Under the pieces are notes generated by a model. That model searched no databases, was not told the DNA's origin, and was given only the letters and a program-made list of their open reading frames with translations. Positions 9,111 through 29,553 of a stretch of 41,672 nucleotides of DNA are shown piece by piece. The first letter of the stretch is position 1. The number at the start of each line of letters is the position of its first letter. The position numbers and the translations under genes are program-made. This DNA is from a virus. Lineage: Duplodnaviria; Caudoviricetes. Where the stretch lies: positions 1 through 41,672 of IMG/VR virus record IMGVR_UViG_3300011439_000006. One strand, written 5' to 3'.

Positions 9111-9374
9111 GTGAATACGGTTGCCCTGGAGCGGCCCGCGCTGCCGGCCGAGCCGTCCAACGGTGCGTCTGCCGCTGACCACGCGGGCCGGGGCTGGATC
9201 ATCATCGGCCCCCGGGTGCGGGCCCACCTGGGCCCCCAGCTTGAGCGGGCGCTGCCCCTGGTGTGGCTGGCCCTGTTGGAGATGAGCGGGGCCCAGGAAG
9301 GGCAGGGCTATCGGCTGGTGGTGGACGCCGCGCATCTTGAGCCGGCGTCGGCTCCGGAGGCGCCGCCCGCGTGA
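9111..9374 (+). CDS. Hypothetical protein
   Basis: Fills the gap; stop overlaps endolysin start (GTGA). Confidence 0.5.
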   Translation: MNTVALERPALPAEPSNGASAADHAGRGWIIIGPRVRAHLGPQLERALPLVWLALLEMSGAQEGQGYRLVVDAAHLEPASAPEAPPA

Positions 9375-10033
9375 GCGCGACGACCAGCGGCGACGTGCGC
9401 ACCGTCCGGCCGGACACCGGGGCCGTGCTGGTCAACGGCGTGGCCGCCCCGCTGGAGGGCATCTCCCGCTGGGATCCCCTCCAGGGCGGCTGGGGTTTTC
9501 TGACCTGGACCGGGTCCGTGTTCCACCCCGGCATGGACCTCAACGCCGGCAGCGGGGGCAATGCCGACTGCGGCAAGCGGGTCTACGCCCCGTGCGCGGG
9601 GACGGTCCTGGCCGCCCTGCCCTGGGACGGCTGGACGACCGGGGAAGGCAACCACCTCTGGGTCGCGCTGGACGACCCGGTGGCCGTGGCCCCGGCGTGG
9701 CTGCACGTGATGCACCTGCAGGAGTTCCGGGCGCAGGTGGGGCAGCGGGTGGGCGCCGGCGACGTGCTGGGGCTGTGCGGCCGGACGGGCAACTGGGACT
9801 GGTGCCACGCCCACACCGAGCTGACCCGGCACGACCCCCAGGGCAACTGGTGGCTGTGGCCCAGCGGGTGGAGCCGGGAGGCGGTGGCCGCGGCGTGGTT
9901 CGACCCCTTCTGGTGGTGGACCGAGACGGTCAAGCGGGGCGCGGCGGTGGCGCCGGTGCCGCCCCCGGTGCTGACGCCGCTGACCCGCGCCTACTTCGAG
10001 ATGCTGAGCTGGGAAGAACCGGCGGCCGCGTAG
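9371..10033 (+). CDS. Endolysin, M23 family peptidase
   Basis: FHPGMDLN (HxxxD), YAPCAGTV, GNHLWV, MHL, VGQRVGAGDVLGLCGRTG, HAH (HxH). Confidence 0.9.
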   Translation: MSATTSGDVRTVRPDTGAVLVNGVAAPLEGISRWDPLQGGWGFLTWTGSVFHPGMDLNAGSGGNADCGKRVYAPCAGTVLAALPWDGWTTGEGNHLWVALDDPVAVAPAWLHVMHLQEFRAQVGQRVGAGDVLGLCGRTGNWDWCHAHTELTRHDPQGNWWLWPSGWSREAVAAAWFDPFWWWTETVKRGAAVAPVPPPVLTPLTRAYFEMLSWEEPAAA

Positions 10034-10051
10034 GCACGAGGAGGACCCCCG

Positions 10052-10315
10052 ATGGCCGAGCAGGCGCTCTCAGACGCGGAATTGGCCTACGAGTACGCCC
10101 CGGCCAAGTGGGGCGCGTTGATGCCGGACATCAACGACCTGCCCTACGAGGCCTGGCCGGGGATCTTCAAGAGCTGGCTGGACGAGACGAGGGCGGGGCG
10201 CCAGCGGGGCACCCCCCTGGCCGGGGAGCAGCCCCTGCGCAGCGGCGGGGTGTGGCAGCCCTTCCAGTTCGGGGACGCCTTCTTCAAGGACGGCGCCTGC
10301 GGTTGGCGTGGTTAG
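10052..10315 (+). CDS. Small protein with one LGFP-like cell-wall repeat
   Basis: GAGGAGG RBS; IFKSW...GTPLAGEQPLRSGGVWQPFQFG resembles the LGFP-repeat pattern. Confidence 0.6.
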   Translation: MAEQALSDAELAYEYAPAKWGALMPDINDLPYEAWPGIFKSWLDETRAGRQRGTPLAGEQPLRSGGVWQPFQFGDAFFKDGACGWRG

Positions 10316-10336: not shown

Positions 10337-10483
10337 ATGCCCAGCATCCACTTCATCCTGCTGCTCATCGCGGCCATCCTGGCTGGGATCGCGGCGGTGT
10401 ACGTGCCCGCCTCGCCGCCGCGGTTCAGCCTGCTGGCGGCGGCCGTGTGTTTCCTGGCGCTGGCGTTCTTGTTCCCTGGCTAG
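10337..10483 (+). CDS. Putative holin (48 aa, two TM helices)
   Basis: MPSIHFILLLIAAILAGIAAVYVPASPPRFSLLAAAVCFLALAFLFPG; below the ORF-track cutoff; in the lysis cassette. Confidence 0.7.
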   Translation: MPSIHFILLLIAAILAGIAAVYVPASPPRFSLLAAAVCFLALAFLFPG

Positions 10484-10485
10484 CG

Positions 10486-11835
10486 GTGCGCCCGCATCCG
10501 GCGAAGCCGTGGACGGTCGCCGGGTTCGCCCTCGGGGTGCTGGGGGCGCTGCTCTTCCTGCGCGCCTGCGGCCCCACCGCCTGGGGCCAGGGCACGATCA
10601 CGCTGTGCCACTTCAATGGGGCCAACGCCAGCCCGGTCTACACCCAGCTCACGTTTTCGCTGGACGACCCCGCCCGTCTGCCCCACGTGAACAACCCCGC
10701 CGACCTGGTGCCCGCGCCCCCCGGCGGGTGCCCCGCTTCCCCCCAGACGCGGACGCCGGTACCCTCGCCCACATGGACAGCGACCAACACGCCGACGCCC
10801 AGCACGACGCCAACCCCGTCTTCGACCCCGAGTCCATCCCCAACGTCGCCCTCCACCGCGGTGATGTTCTCGTCGTTGACCCCTTCAGCCACGGGCGTTA
10901 CGAGTACCGCCTCTTCGACGCCTACCAGCGCCACCTCGCCACCCTCGTCGGTGACCACAACAGCGACGGCCACTTCGTCATCGACACCATCCAACACATC
11001 GGGCGGGGCCGTGAACTGCTGCCCCTTCGTCGCCAACCCCAGCCGGACGCCTACACCCAGCCCCTCACCGTCGCCAACGCCTACGCTGCCACCATCACCG
11101 TTTCCGTCCCCCTCCCCTCCGATGGCCCCTACGAGTACCGCCTCGCCCACCACCACTCCCACGCCCACGCCGGAGACGCCGACGGCGCCCTCCCCCACGC
11201 CCACGACCACGCCCACAGCGGCGCCGACGCCCACCGAGCCGGGCAGTACGGCCACGGGCGAGACCCCCACGCCCACCGGCACTGAAGCGCCGCCCTGGGC
11301 GGCCTTCGAGGCGACTGGTCGCCCGCCCGCTCCCCCGGAGGCCCCGCATGACGACGTCGGACCGGACCCGCGACCCGCTGAACCTGGGCCCCCGGCTGCG
11401 CCACCCGTCGTCACCGTCCTCGTCCCCGGTCCCCCCCAGCTCCTCCCCGCCATCACCGTCGTCCCCCCGCCCGTCATCACCCGAGTCACCCAAGTCACCC
11501 AGGTCACCGCGATCCAGACCGTCCTCGTTACGGTCGTCGTTCCGGCGCTGGCGCCGGCGCCACCTGCTGTGGGAGGCGAAGGTGGGGCGGTGGGTGTACC
11601 GCCGGCTGCCGATCCTGGGGGCGATCCCCGCACCCCAACTCCCCCCGGAGGTGGAGGTGCTGGCCCTGCGGGTGCTGGTGGTGGCCCTGCTGGCCCTGCT
11701 GGTGGTGGAGACGGTGGTGCTGGTGCTGACGGCCCCGGTGGCCTCCCCCGCTCCGTAGAGGCCCTGCTGCTGGGCGCCTCGGCGATGCTGGGCCTGGCGC
11801 TGGGCCTCCTGCGGGTGGCGACGGAGCGCCGATGA
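10486..11835 (+). CDS. Secreted/membrane-anchored Ser/Thr/Pro-rich protein with hydrophobic segments at both ends
   Basis: N-terminal signal/TM, ITLCH...DLVPAPPGGCP domain, long STP linker, C-terminal LPRSV + TM + basic tail; stop overlaps next ATG. Confidence 0.7.
   Translation: MRPHPAKPWTVAGFALGVLGALLFLRACGPTAWGQGTITLCHFNGANASPVYTQLTFSLDDPARLPHVNNPADLVPAPPGGCPASPQTRTPVPSPTWTATNTPTPSTTPTPSSTPSPSPTSPSTAVMFSSLTPSATGVTSTASSTPTSATSPPSSVTTTATATSSSTPSNTSGGAVNCCPFVANPSRTPTPSPSPSPTPTLPPSPFPSPSPPMAPTSTASPTTTPTPTPETPTAPSPTPTTTPTAAPTPTEPGSTATGETPTPTGTEAPPWAAFEATGRPPAPPEAPHDDVGPDPRPAEPGPPAAPPVVTVLVPGPPQLLPAITVVPPPVITRVTQVTQVTAIQTVLVTVVVPALAPAPPAVGGEGGAVGVPPAADPGGDPRTPTPPGGGGAGPAGAGGGPAGPAGGGDGGAGADGPGGLPRSVEALLLGASAMLGLALGLLRVATERR
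10773..11285 (+). CDS. Candidate overprinted gene A (170 aa, His-rich tail) nested in 10486-11835
   Basis: Open frame with mostly C/G-ending codons and globular-looking sequence; no clear RBS. Confidence 0.4.
   Translation: MDSDQHADAQHDANPVFDPESIPNVALHRGDVLVVDPFSHGRYEYRLFDAYQRHLATLVGDHNSDGHFVIDTIQHIGRGRELLPLRRQPQPDAYTQPLTVANAYAATITVSVPLPSDGPYEYRLAHHHSHAHAGDADGALPHAHDHAHSGADAHRAGQYGHGRDPHAHRH
11348..11758 (+). CDS. Overprinted gene B (136 aa, basic region + single TM helix) nested in 10486-11835
   Basis: GGAGG 11337-11341, 6 nt before ATG; genome-typical gtg/ctg/gcc codons encode VLALRVLVVALLALLVVETVVLVL. Confidence 0.65.
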   Translation: MTTSDRTRDPLNLGPRLRHPSSPSSSPVPPSSSPPSPSSPRPSSPESPKSPRSPRSRPSSLRSSFRRWRRRHLLWEAKVGRWVYRRLPILGAIPAPQLPPEVEVLALRVLVVALLALLVVETVVLVLTAPVASPAP

Positions 11836-12218
11836 GCAGCGGCTCCGGTCCCGTCCCCATCCGCCCCGTGCCGCGCCCGCCGGTGACCCCGGGGACGTCG
11901 GAGCCGCCGGGGACGGTGACCGCGGTGGCGCCGCCCGGCGGGACGGCGACCGCGACCAGCGCCCCGAACCCGGCCCCGGCGCAGGCGGCGCTGGCGGTGT
12001 TCATCTTCCGCCAGATCATCGCGGTGCTCTTCCTGGGGGGCTGGTTGGTGCTCTTCGCGGGCGAGCTGCTAACCGGAGACTACACCCTCCCGTTGTGGTA
12101 CCACTGCTGCGCGGTGGGCGTCCTCGCCTACTCCTTGGGGATCAACGTCGCCGAGCTGACCGCGTTCCGGCCCCCCACCGTGGCCTCGGTGCTGCCCCGC
12201 GGGGGCCCCGAGCGATGA
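11832..12218 (+). CDS. Membrane protein, holin-like (two TM helices)
   Basis: IIAVLFLGGWLVLFAG and LWYHCCAVGVLAYSLGI; ATGA coupling. Confidence 0.65.
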   Translation: MSSGSGPVPIRPVPRPPVTPGTSEPPGTVTAVAPPGGTATATSAPNPAPAQAALAVFIFRQIIAVLFLGGWLVLFAGELLTGDYTLPLWYHCCAVGVLAYSLGINVAELTAFRPPTVASVLPRGGPER

Positions 12219-20780: not shown

Positions 20781-21736
20781 GCCGGCAGCTGCACCGCCCG
20801 GCGGTGGTGGGGGCGCTCGGGGGCCACACGGCCCGCCTGACCCCGGAAGACGACCACCTGGTCTTCGTCAGCAGCTACCACCAGGGCCTCGTCGCCGAGT
20901 TCAAGCAGGCCGTGCCCCCGAGCGCCAGGAAGTGGGAGCGCGACCGGCGGGCCTGGCTGGTCGACCCCGCCTACGGCGATACGGTGGCTCGCCTGTGCGA
21001 GCTGTACCTGGGCGTGAAGCCGACGGTGCCGGCGGTCAGCCCGGTGGCCGCAGCGGCCCCGCAGCCCGTGGTGCGCCTGCTGGTGGTGGAGTACCTGGGG
21101 GGCGCCCGGCTGCGCCCCGGCGGGCAGGTGACGGCCATGGGCTGGGTGGACGGGGAGTGGCGGGTGGCGTTCGACGTCGCCGTGCTGCGCCGCTTCTTCG
21201 AGCCCGGCTACGGCGAGACGCAGGTGGTGTCCGGTGATGAGAGCGGCGGGCCTCCGCCGACGCTCTACGCGCTCCTGGGGGTGACCGGGCAGGCCACGGG
21301 GGACGAGCTGAGGGCGGCCTTCCGGCGCCAGGCCCTGCACCTGCACCCCGACCGCAACCGGGAGCCGGACGCAGCCGACCGCTTCCGCCAGGCCAAGGAG
21401 GCCTACGACCTGCTGCGCGACCCCCTGAGCCGGCGCAAGTACGACGTGGGGCTGGCCTTCGAGGCGGACGCCCAGCAGTACGAGGCGCTCGACCGGCGCC
21501 GGCGCCAATGGCGACAGGAGCCCCTCCCCGAGCAGACGGTGTACCGGGCGCCGGTGACCAACGGCGTCTTCCTCCTGCGCGGGACGCCCCGGCTGGGGGT
21601 GTTCGTCGCGGCGGAGGTGCTCCAGCGGGAGGACATCACCTCGAGGGACGGCGCCGTCCTGGTGAGCAGCTGGCCCAAGGACGGGGAGACCTTCGAGCGC
21701 CGGTGGGTGCGTCCCGGGGACGTGGCCGTGCCCTGA
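20768..21736 (+). CDS. J-domain (DnaJ-type) protein with N-terminal HARP-like domain
   Basis: LYALLGV...ELRAAFRRQALHLHPDRN...FRQAKEAYDLLRDPLSRRKYD with intact HPD; N-terminal YHQGLVAEFK...RKWERDRRAWLV. Confidence 0.85.
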   Translation: MPGLSRQLHRPAVVGALGGHTARLTPEDDHLVFVSSYHQGLVAEFKQAVPPSARKWERDRRAWLVDPAYGDTVARLCELYLGVKPTVPAVSPVAAAAPQPVVRLLVVEYLGGARLRPGGQVTAMGWVDGEWRVAFDVAVLRRFFEPGYGETQVVSGDESGGPPPTLYALLGVTGQATGDELRAAFRRQALHLHPDRNREPDAADRFRQAKEAYDLLRDPLSRRKYDVGLAFEADAQQYEALDRRRRQWRQEPLPEQTVYRAPVTNGVFLLRGTPRLGVFVAAEVLQREDITSRDGAVLVSSWPKDGETFERRWVRPGDVAVP

Positions 21737-23528: not shown

Positions 23529-23573
23529 GCCTTCGTTAACGGGTACGCGCAGCACTGGAGGTCTTGCTGGTGA
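23529..23573 (+). pseudogene. Stranded original 3' end of the transglycosylase gene
   Basis: Encodes AFVNGYAQHWRSCW*, versus AFANNYATHWSCR* at 22675-22716. Confidence 0.75.
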
Positions 23574-24139
23574 GCACGTCGATCGTGGCCGGGAGCCTGG
23601 CGGCGCTGGCCCAGCGCCAGAACGTGGGGGTCGCCTGCCTGTTCGCGGACGCCACGCACGTCGTGGTCGTAGACGTCAGCGGGAGTATGGCGAACGCCGA
23701 CTCCCGGGGGGGGCGGCGGCGGATCGACGTGGCCAGGGAGGAGCTGGCCAAGCTGCAGGCGCAGCACCCCGGGAGGCTGGCCATCATCGGCTTCTCGGAG
23801 CGGGCCCGCTTCCTCCCCGGCGGGGTGGTGCCGGAGGCGGAGACCAACACCGACCTGGCCGGAGCGCTCGGGTACGCCCGGCGGGTGGACGGGACGGGCC
23901 TGGCCCTGGTGGTGATCACGGACGGCCAGCCGGACGACGCGACGGCCGCCCTCGCGGAGGCGCAGCGCTTCACGTGCCGGATCGACGTGGTGTTCGTGGG
24001 GGACGAGGCGGACGCCGGCGCCCAGCTGTTCTGCAAGCTGCTCGCCCGCTCGGGTCGGGGCACGGCCTCGCAGGCGTTCCGGGTGGGGGGCATGGCGGAG
24101 GCCGTGACGCCGCTGCTCAGCGCAGGTGCCTCGCGGTGA
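23570..24139 (+). CDS. von Willebrand factor A domain protein
   Basis: MIDAS DVSGSM, TDLAGAL, VITDGQPD, IDVVFVG. Confidence 0.9.
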   Translation: MSTSIVAGSLAALAQRQNVGVACLFADATHVVVVDVSGSMANADSRGGRRRIDVAREELAKLQAQHPGRLAIIGFSERARFLPGGVVPEAETNTDLAGALGYARRVDGTGLALVVITDGQPDDATAALAEAQRFTCRIDVVFVGDEADAGAQLFCKLLARSGRGTASQAFRVGGMAEAVTPLLSAGASR

Positions 24140-27716: not shown

Positions 27717-28082
27717 GTGCCTGAGAACCCGTCGGTAACCCGGGGCCCCAGTGGCCGGTTCCTGCCCGGGAACACCGGGAACGGGGGAGGACGCCCGCGG
27801 GGCCTGGCGGCGCTGGTGCAGGCCGAGACGCGGGACGGGGCGGAGCTGGTGGCCTTCATGCTGCGCGTCCTGCGGGGGGAGCGGCACCCCACCGTGCTGC
27901 GGCTGCAGGCGGCGCAGTGGCTGGCCGACCGGGGCTTCGGCAAGGCGGTGCAGACGGTGGAGGTGGACGCCTCCGTCGACGCCACCGTCACCCATCGGGA
28001 GGCCCTGCGGGCCCACGTGGACGAGGCCGATGTGGAGCGCCTCACCCGGGCGCTGTTGGGGAGCGATGACCGCGACCGCTGA
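27717..28082 (+). CDS. terS: Terminase small subunit
   Basis: GRFLPGNTGNGGGRPRG, LADRGFGKAVQ; directly upstream of terL. Confidence 0.75.
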   Translation: MPENPSVTRGPSGRFLPGNTGNGGGRPRGLAALVQAETRDGAELVAFMLRVLRGERHPTVLRLQAAQWLADRGFGKAVQTVEVDASVDATVTHREALRAHVDEADVERLTRALLGSDDRDR

Positions 28083-29553
28083 GGCCGCCTTGGCCCCCGC
28101 GGCCGCGGGCACGTGGGACGCGGTGGCTCTCGAGTTAGCCAGAAGGCGCCCGGAGGTGTACGCCCTGGTGGCCCACGGCCTGCGCCCGGCGCGGCACCAC
28201 CTGGCCTGGCTCGCCGCCCTGCGGGAGACGGTGCAGACCCCCGGCGGGCGCCTCTTGCTCATCGCCCCGCCGGGGACGGCCAAGAGCACCTACACCAGCC
28301 TCATGCTGCCGCTGTGGTATCTCGGGAACCACCCGGACCGGGCGGTGCTGGCGATCACCTCCAGCGACGTGATGGCGAGCGAGTTTCATGGCGTGGTCGA
28401 CGTGGCCCTGCGCCAGAACGGCGCCCACCGGGCCGTGTTTCCCCAGGACGCGGGGCGGCCCGACCCGGCCCGGGGCTGGTCGCAGGACGGGCTCTACCTC
28501 GAGGGCGTGCCCCCGGGGGTGAAAGACCCCTCCTACCGCGTCTCCGGCTTCGGCTCGTCGGTCATCGGCAGCCGTTGCCACTTGCTCCTCCTGGACGACC
28601 CGGTGACGCAGGAGACGGCCCAGAGCGAGGCCGAGATGCGCCGGGTGCGCCGGGTGCTGGACCTCACCCTGCTGACCCGCCTGCACCCGCAGGGCAGCGC
28701 GGTGGCGATCATGACCCGCTGGGGGGAGGCCGACCTGGCCGCCCACCTCCTCTCCCAGGGCTGGCGCGCCGAGGTGTGGCCCCAGCTCTCCGAGGCCTAC
28801 CCGGGAGCCGAGCGCGACGGTGAGGGTCGGGCCTCCCTGTGGCCGCGGCGCTTCCCGCTGGCCTGGGTGGAGGGGGAGCGCGCCCGGCTGGGCACGGCGC
28901 AGTTCGAGCTGGTGCACCAGGGCAACCCCCTGCTCATGGGGGGCAACGTCTACCGCGCGGCCGAGTGGTTCCGCCCGCTGCCGCCGAGCTTCCTGACCGA
29001 GATCGCGCCGCGGGCGGTGCGGATGATGTACGTCGACACCGCGTTTAGCGAGAAGACCGCCGCCGACTACACGTGCGCCGTCACCGTGGCCTACGACCCC
29101 CGCGACCCGCAGCGCCGCCTCTACGTGGTGGGCCTGTTCCGGAAGCAGATCAACGAGGACGGCCTGGCCGCCGCGCTCGCGGAGCACATCCTGGTGCACC
29201 GGCCCGACGCCGTCGGGGTGGAACTGCCCGCTTTCCGCCAGGAGGCCACCCAGGGGATGCTGCTGGAGCTGGGGCAGCGGCTCTCCGGGCGCCACCCGGT
29301 GGTGGTCACAGCCGTCCGGGTGTCCACGGACAAGACCGTGCGCGCCCGCCTGCCCGCCGCCCGGGGCGAGGCCGGCCTCCTGTACGTCGACAAGCAGCTG
29401 CCGGAGTGGCCCACCGCCGAGCGCGAGCTGCTGGGCTTCCCCGTGGCGGCCCACGATGACGTCTCGGACGCCCTGGCCGGGGCGACGGTGATGGCCCTGG
29501 GGCCGGTGGGGCAGCAGGCCAGCGAGCGGCCCCAGAAGGTCAGGTTCGGGTAG
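28066..29553 (+). CDS. terL: Terminase large subunit
   Basis: LIAPPGTAKS (Walker A), LLLLDDP (Walker B), IMTRW..DL, YVDTA..ADY, FP...HDDVSDA. Confidence 0.93.
   Translation: MTATAEAALAPAAAGTWDAVALELARRRPEVYALVAHGLRPARHHLAWLAALRETVQTPGGRLLLIAPPGTAKSTYTSLMLPLWYLGNHPDRAVLAITSSDVMASEFHGVVDVALRQNGAHRAVFPQDAGRPDPARGWSQDGLYLEGVPPGVKDPSYRVSGFGSSVIGSRCHLLLLDDPVTQETAQSEAEMRRVRRVLDLTLLTRLHPQGSAVAIMTRWGEADLAAHLLSQGWRAEVWPQLSEAYPGAERDGEGRASLWPRRFPLAWVEGERARLGTAQFELVHQGNPLLMGGNVYRAAEWFRPLPPSFLTEIAPRAVRMMYVDTAFSEKTAADYTCAVTVAYDPRDPQRRLYVVGLFRKQINEDGLAAALAEHILVHRPDAVGVELPAFRQEATQGMLLELGQRLSGRHPVVVTAVRVSTDKTVRARLPAARGEAGLLYVDKQLPEWPTAERELLGFPVAAHDDVSDALAGATVMALGPVGQQASERPQKVRFG

Follow-up and report, generated by a model that had tools for sequence, protein, structure and literature searches.

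Among the nested genes of tailed phages found in the literature, a single kind of pair is represented, the embedded two-component spanins Rz/Rz1 (PMC6139136; PMC7830690), to which, in the accessible text, the nested pair of LambdaSo also belongs (10.1101/2024.01.23.576932). Rz/Rz1 resemble the locus analyzed here in that a gene is embedded in the +1 (or -1) frame at the end of the lysis cassette, one frame is flexible and Pro-rich where the other is constrained, and cysteines are conserved, as far as the available part of the source describes them (PMC6139136). At the present locus, however, the Pro-rich gene is the outer one and nested genes occupy both other frames. The nested +1 product has a C-terminal helix with almost nothing predicted outside and no product is a lipoprotein, as the preliminary description had anticipated when it remarked that the topology differs; the -1 product has no signal, and the outer product has no uncleaved N-terminal helix. 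The analogy with Rz/Rz1 drawn there thus holds for the gene layout and fails for the proteins, which show no lipobox and no N-terminal anchor with a periplasmic coiled coil. Of the features of the u-spanin T1 gp11, the C-terminal membrane helix is present and the N-terminal lipobox is absent (0/13 outer N-termini tested). By these features, the module is very probably not a spanin.

Actinophage lysis needs extra single- and multi-helix proteins (10.1101/2025.06.24.661397; PMC13056207, each for the part accessible). The LysZ/LysY membrane proteins of corynephage lysis cassettes include a single-helix protein, LysZ, with a long Pro-containing part, encoded next to a multi-helix gene as in the module; LysZ is built of an N-terminal helix, a body that is long and alpha-helical, and a C-terminal helix, an order found neither in the outer product, with its signal peptide, disordered stalk and C-terminal helix, nor in the +1 product, and no nesting is described in the available text (10.1101/2025.06.24.661397). 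LysF1a and LysF1b of F1 mycobacteriophages, both required for efficient lysis, form an ATGA-coupled pair of a two-helix and a single-helix protein (PMC13056207), and multi-helix membrane proteins are also reported from Gordonia phage cassettes (PMC9671378). In LysF1b the helix is N-terminal, with N-out/C-in topology, and the tail is helical and charged, the reverse order of the nested +1 protein. LysZ, LysF1b and the Gordonia cassettes, in the parts of the sources that were accessible, therefore offer extra membrane proteins as found here with unlike topologies.

In the lysis protein L of MS2, the basic N-terminus before the helix is partly dispensable. The +1 protein is likewise small, single-helix, basic in its N-terminal part and encoded in an alternative frame, and leviviral single-gene lysis proteins arise in +1 frames of larger genes (PMC7693330, accessible part). 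These proteins act alone in RNA phages without endolysin, whereas the +1 protein has three fixed partners in the cassette of a dsDNA phage; sequence similarity to leviviral lysis proteins was not found. That disorder in one frame eases gene overlap is established (PMC8227390, accessible part). In the literature searched, mainly openly available papers, no description of such a module or layout was found, and as far as searched the arrangement is undescribed and denser than known embedded lysis genes.

The phage and the parts of the module

The window, that is, the whole stretch of DNA analyzed, is a 41672-base record of a complete temperate phage with direct terminal repeats (100% complete, 74% GC). 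Family scans identified capsid, terminase, primase, serine integrase and repressor-like genes. The phage family carrying the module was found in soil and sediment. Around the module, the genes are ordered as tail fibre, M23 peptidase, 87-aa gene, 48-aa gene, outer ORF, 128-aa gene, Arc-like gene and integrase. Coordinates of all features are collected in Table 1.

Table 1. Positions of the features discussed, in the window unless a relative is named.
Feature	Position	Strand	Remarks
M23 endopeptidase, catalytic part of endolysin	9371..10033	+	Pfam PF01551, E 1e-8; PHROG endolysin matches
87-aa gene, C-terminal domain of endolysin, likely wall-binding	10052..10315	+	Fused to M23 domain in relatives
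48-aa two-helix membrane gene, holin-like	10337..10483	+	No match in family scans
Outer ORF, 449 aa	10486..11835	+	GTG start; open to the C-terminal helix in 20/20 loci
Nested ORF 1, 170 aa, -1 frame	10773..11285	+	ATG start; predicted four-stranded beta domain with His-x-His hairpin
Cys-Cys-Pro-Phe motif of the outer frame	11017..11028	+	In the stalk; Cys-Cys-Pro in 15/17 loci
GGAGG, ribosome-binding-like site of the +1 ORF	11337..11341	+	6 nt before ATG 11348; predicted unstructured
Nested ORF 2, 136 aa, +1 frame to outer ORF	11348..11758	+	Ser/Pro-rich N-terminus, C-terminal membrane helix
Candidate internal +1 start	11572..11584	+	GGAGG, 5 nt, GTG 11582; 58-aa product
Outer C-terminal helix and basic tail	11758..11832	+	Singly coded; normal codons
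128-aa two-helix membrane gene, fourth gene of the module	11832..12218	+	Start overlaps outer stop (ATGA)
Third nested ORF, +1 frame over outer signal peptide	L012 2360-2449, L019 392-511, L022 2420-2521, L026 1605-1704, L030 7200-7323		Five relatives

The endolysin of the window is split (9371-10315) into the M23 gene and the 87-aa gene, the latter with its own Shine-Dalgarno sequence (SD). In the fused relatives a Met stands at the junction, and the split recalls two-polypeptide endolysins (PMC9430671). A weak LGFP match to the C-terminal lysin domain was obtained in 1/8 relatives (E 0.047). Two scans of species genomes gave no match for the host, and a search in cultured phages and plasmids gave remote matches only; given the M23 lysin, the weak LGFP match and the absence of lipoprotein signals, the host is probably a high-GC, single-membrane bacterium. 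The 48-aa two-helix gene also occurs in phages without the module; in L026 (1236-1359) the small two-helix gene is extended by a long Leu-Gly dinucleotide-like repeat, perhaps an assembly artefact. The 128-aa two-helix gene has 35 homologues.

Two further observations concern the rest of the phage. Its replication region contains DnaJ-domain and VWA-domain genes (20804-21733 and 23564-24136), and its terminase (28066-29550) matched just 1/4 module-bearing records (G001-G004), so that the lysis module is common to differing head modules.

The outer product consists of a predicted cleaved signal peptide ending in A-x-A/G followed by Q, a small head with a Cys-His...Cys-Pro pattern, a stalk of 81% Pro/Thr/Ser/Ala, a C-terminal helix and a basic tail. 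The first 35 residues contain no Cys at all in 7 of the 13 N-termini. Sortase-anchored LPxTG surface proteins have the same succession of a signal peptide, a Pro/Thr stalk, and a C-terminal helix with a basic tail; the outer protein differs from them in that LPxTG was found in 0/17 C-termini, with no match to NCBIfam sorting signals. Two nested ORFs stand in tandem within this one ORF, and 924 of its 1350 nt (~68%) are double-coded, both alternative frames being used in turn. The locus had been called triple-frame, which is right in that three frames are used in turn and wrong if taken for any base coded in three frames. Gene callers retain the nested genes and tend to miss the outer ORF.

The -1 product is without an export signal. 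Its AF2 model shows a four-stranded sheet and the His-x-His hairpin, with a mean pLDDT of 61 and values of 72-86 over residues 31-80. A PDB sequence search with the domain gave E 0.11 at best, a fold search over 48161 chains a best Z of 4.0 for a common beta-meander, and no viral fold matched at E ≤ 0.001; in the ESM Atlas, neither this domain nor the outer head had a usable match. Among the 150 sequence matches listed, about 35 are single-match proteins of 75-280 aa, and most of the 150 are long repeat proteins that match 20-40 profile positions in many stretches and were set aside as unspecific.

For the +1 product, the basic stretch and long helix of the preliminary description reappear in the AF2 model, in which residues 1-59 are disordered and two helices follow, a basic Trp-rich one (residues 60-86) and the membrane helix (residues 100-132) with a mid-helix Glu (helix pLDDT 86-96, pTM 0.32). 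In the window it has no N-terminal signal and no Cys. A mid-helix Glu or Gln is present in 19/20 +1 products, 2-12 residues trail the helix, and Lys/Arg are more numerous on its N-terminal side than behind it in 20/20, from which an N-in/C-out topology is predicted. A viral fold search gave no match for the protein, and database searches for its family returned 3 and then 20 proteins, some of them loci already counted.

Double coding and its conservation

The +1 ORF, the two-helix gene and the lysin served as scan queries for relatives, which gave 19 distinct module-bearing ones, 16 via the two-helix gene or +1 ORF and 3 via the lysin. Duplicates were counted once (L003/L004/L023 as L001, L008 as L007, L024/L033 as L009, L010 as L011, L013/L025/L037 as L012, L021 as L019, L034 as L026 and L038 as L035), and L002 was dropped as a chance match. 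The relatives span 53-76% GC, and their +1 cores share 17-87% identity (median 33%). Trees of the short +1 cores were poorly resolved and were left out for the order of events.

Codon use in the window bears out the switch noted earlier at about 11560-11755. Over 11560-11757, A/T is the third base of 38/66 outer codons where 7.2 would be expected (Poisson p ~1e-15), with a CAI of 0.27 in the outer frame and 0.83, that is, genome-typical codons, in the +1 frame. After the nested TAG, the outer frame is normal again (1/24 A/T-ending codons, 1.7 expected) and encodes its own C-terminal helix, also as described before. Nine of the 12 reference ORFs never exceed 15 A/T-ending codons per 66-codon window; the remaining three reach 25-36 only in wrong-frame N-terminal extensions, which raised the expectation and make the null conservative. 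The -1 ORF comes with a codon anomaly of its own, 21/90 codons ending in A/T against 7.2 expected, and C occupies 0.87-0.93 of the fourfold sites of the -1 ORF compared with 0.51 genome-wide; the outer Cys-Cys-Pro imposes G-ending codons on the -1 frame in 30/30 cases. A per-frame codon check by GC3 had been proposed. The anomaly of the outer wobble base, which is the informative measure, stands, whereas high GC3 in the +1 frame proves nothing, since Gly, Ala and Pro codons of the outer frame force G/C at its third positions.

With the outer protein held fixed, a +1 helix with KD19 of at least 2.6 arose in 0/20000 resamplings under genome usage and in 2/20000 under uniform usage. The 5′ half of the +1 frame was open in 16/20000 resamplings without codon context; with context the figure is ~0.02, because ordinary genes use GTG in 28/60 Val codons before A and six avoidances are concerned. 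On the window alone, the 5′ half is less strongly supported.

The relatives extend this evidence. In 20/20 loci (the window and 19/19 relatives) outer ORF and +1 helix ORF occur together, the joint conservation that had been suggested as a check, and the +1 ORF ends 68-98 nt before the outer stop. The third frame of the helix block contains stops in 18/20 loci; the outer and +1 frames contain none. In this block of 26 codons the outer wobble base is T in 289/380 codons, and pN/pS, taken across 10 disjoint pairs, amounts to 1.52 for the outer frame vs 0.82 for the +1 frame, the latter only mildly below 1 because both frames constrain it and the pairs are saturated. Differing residues have a mean BLOSUM score of 0.08 in the +1 frame vs -1.26 in the outer frame. 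In the outer C-terminal helix, pN/pS is 0.73 in the outer frame vs 1.04 in the +1 frame. The outer frame is open in 12/12 loci, for which the null gives 0-6% each, and in 12/12 loci the Pro/Thr/Ser/Ala content of the stalk lies above every one of 2000 null draws; it is under selection of its own and not a passenger. In short, with selection acting on each frame, the dual coding asserted in the preliminary description is practically certain to be real, and it is kept across phages whose +1 cores have diverged to the low median identity given above.

An assembly indel had been named there as what could explain the frame switching away. It is excluded by the 19 diverged relatives, all of which keep the +1 helix ORF. 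A contig of one public run likewise aligns gap-free with the window, of which it may, however, be the source.

The -1 ORF is present in all 18 loci that reach the region, and its ATG in 16/16 loci with an intact 5′ end. In 13 of these the ATG arises from ACA-TGG, ACA making up 2% of Thr codons, and in 3 it is relocated with an SD. L018 (1571-2365), a phage of 53% GC, has its -1 ORF in two pieces, and a non-repetitive insert lies in the outer frame there.

Starts of the +1 ORF are more varied. The conserved core is its last ~60 residues, and the N-terminus makes the product range from about 51 to 136 aa. Among 18 loci, the start overlaps the -1 stop in 6, is an SD-led ATG 17-65 nt behind it in 7 (including the window), is an ATG without recognisable SD in 3, and in 2 (L019 and L030) an in-frame TGA precedes an SD-led GTG. 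This shared TGA (L019 1433-1441, L030 8224-8232) divides the ORF into a motif peptide and a helix part, with GGAGG 6 nt before the restarting GTG. The motif YQIDPHLRHDF near the +1 N-terminus, degenerate in the window, is conserved more strongly in the +1 frame than in the outer one. In the window, ORF and GGAGG are present where they had been reported, and ATG 11348 is plausible as the start. The internal SD-led GTG also exists in L001 and L005, and was picked by gene callers (P0051). In the predicted RNA, ATG 11348 is open and GTG 11582 lies in a hairpin, a pattern not common to the other loci, whose start-site hairpins differ; for the GGAGG region, all 200 shuffles fold at least equally well. 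Conservation of the nested ATG and its ribosome-binding site, on which the preliminary description had let its case depend, is thus found in the sense that some start is always kept; the exact ATG and site are not family-wide.

In five relatives (L019, L020, L022, L026 and L030) the two-helix gene begins further upstream, shortly after the +1 stop, and, read in the -1 frame, shares DNA with the outer C-terminal helix.

The M23 lysin adjoins the module in 10/16 relatives, and the remaining 6 are truncated; L006 has it downstream of the module instead. Ten distinct records selected by the lysin alone comprised 6 with all module genes and 4 with none, including G006 (100% complete) and G008 (99% complete), and the 128-aa gene and the nested genes are present or absent together. 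The four-gene block of outer gene, two nested genes and two-helix gene is one optional unit, gained or lost whole. An undescribed nested multi-component system for lysis or envelope disruption had been proposed; a nested multi-component module in the lysis cassette is supported, but any part in lysis would be accessory at most, as 4/10 phages with the same lysin do without it.

Possible roles of the module

From gene context and anatomy, the four-gene block may be an accessory lysis-helper module beside the endolysin, which is the preferred, tentative reading. It would assist the holin-like gene and the M23 endolysin in breaking through a probably single-membrane envelope, or in timing this step. 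The late message would serve for translation of all four proteins, with the +1 ORF relying chiefly on coupling to the -1 stop, and nesting within the low-complexity stalk would keep the genes linked and co-expressed. After export, the outer protein would stay anchored through its C-terminal helix, with the Pro/Thr/Ser stalk passing through the wall, and might dimerise via Cys-Cys. The +1 protein would insert N-in/C-out as a single-helix holin partner, with its basic Trp-rich helix on the inner membrane face, and its membrane helix, with the buried Glu/Gln, could pack against a second copy, against the two-helix protein or against the outer anchor; the soluble His-rich -1 protein may be a cytoplasmic partner or regulator. 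None of the four module proteins has a significant match in Pfam, PHROGs or NCBIfam, and no sequence or fold link to any lysis protein was found in these databases, in the PDB search with the -1 domain or in the fold searches with the two nested products. The +1, 48-aa and 128-aa products also have no significant holin match in Pfam, PHROGs or NCBIfam, in which small holins are often missed.

In T4 lysis inhibition, the holin T acts with periplasmic RI and cytoplasmic RIII. The block could similarly delay lysis, its stalk sensing the outside, the +1 helix relaying and the His-rich protein acting on the holin. This is unlikely, although the block is optional and has parts outside, within and inside the membrane, and the conserved +1 motif resembles a binding site. 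The long and short +1 starts also recall the dual starts of holin and antiholin (PMC13056207, accessible part). However, the searches gave no homology to any of T, RI and RIII, and the start-site hairpins are not conserved.

Lysis regions can also harbor surface genes, as with lambda bor and T5 llp, which are parked there. That the block serves receptor masking, superinfection exclusion or adhesion, expressed late or in the lysogen, is as doubtful as a lysis delay. An exported mucin-like stalk with a small head, the optional block of a temperate phage with an integrase, and the -1 domain standing free in a separate operon of G009 agree with it. No sigma-70-like promoter was found, however, and no promoter or terminator signal (a weak test) parts the block from the lysin; the junctions between the genes are tight or overlapping, and 3/4 products are membrane proteins, as in actinophage lysis cassettes.

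Two further readings are very improbable. By a programmed +1 frameshift, the +1 helix could be an alternative C-terminus of the outer protein, in line with a stretch of 38 nt that the window and L001 share unchanged and with the poorly conserved +1 N-terminus. That stretch is not kept family-wide, though, most loci have +1 starts coupled to the -1 stop or SD-led, and the basic helix would land outside. A spanin-like fusogen, for a host bounded by an outer membrane or another outer layer, is no more probable. It draws on the embedded +1 gene ending the lysis cassette, the Pro-rich partner frame and the conserved Cys, all as in Rz/Rz1 (PMC6139136, accessible part), but the nested ORF has no lipobox either, and a periplasmic coiled coil is absent.

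The locus is almost certainly not a product of shadow frames in a low-complexity gene or of an indel in the assembly: at 74% GC shadow frames often stay open over long stretches and G/C third positions follow automatically, as noted, but the helix did not arise in the genome-usage null trials, the +1 ORF is kept in every relative including those of 53% and 58% GC, and start codons are conserved and also relocated.

To return to the lysis-helper module, it is possible, if rather doubtful, that it represents a new class of lysis machinery for thick-walled single-membrane bacteria, a wall-spanning mucin-like protein whose gene encodes its own membrane and cytoplasmic partners and acts as a gene nursery from which one domain has already escaped. 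The four unannotated protein families of this lysis cassette are candidates for breaching envelopes without an outer membrane.

Captured and apparently escaped genes

Two nested genes per outer ORF are found in the window and three in 5 relatives, which would give up to four proteins from 1.35 kb. The third is a Trp-rich single-helix +1 ORF over the outer signal peptide, where 9-18 of 30-42 outer codons end in A/T, compared with 0-3 in 5 others, among them the window. G009 (L049 2986-3267) contains the -1 domain also as a free-standing gene of 94 aa, in an oppositely oriented operon and with a strong SD; five more homologues, of 75-83 aa, are present among database proteins. In the G009 copy, C occupies 0.85 of the fourfold sites vs 0.28-0.56 in adjacent genes and controls; its +1 frame, which starts behind a stop, has remained rich in Pro/Thr/Ser. 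Read from these features, the copy appears to be an escapee from a nested -1 gene that still bears the codon imprint of the outer frame. Start-codon turnover, the further gene captured over the signal peptide, the split and the escaped copy together provide a natural series for overprinting. The Trp-rich gene that overlaps the signal peptide stands free in L028 and L035, both without the module.
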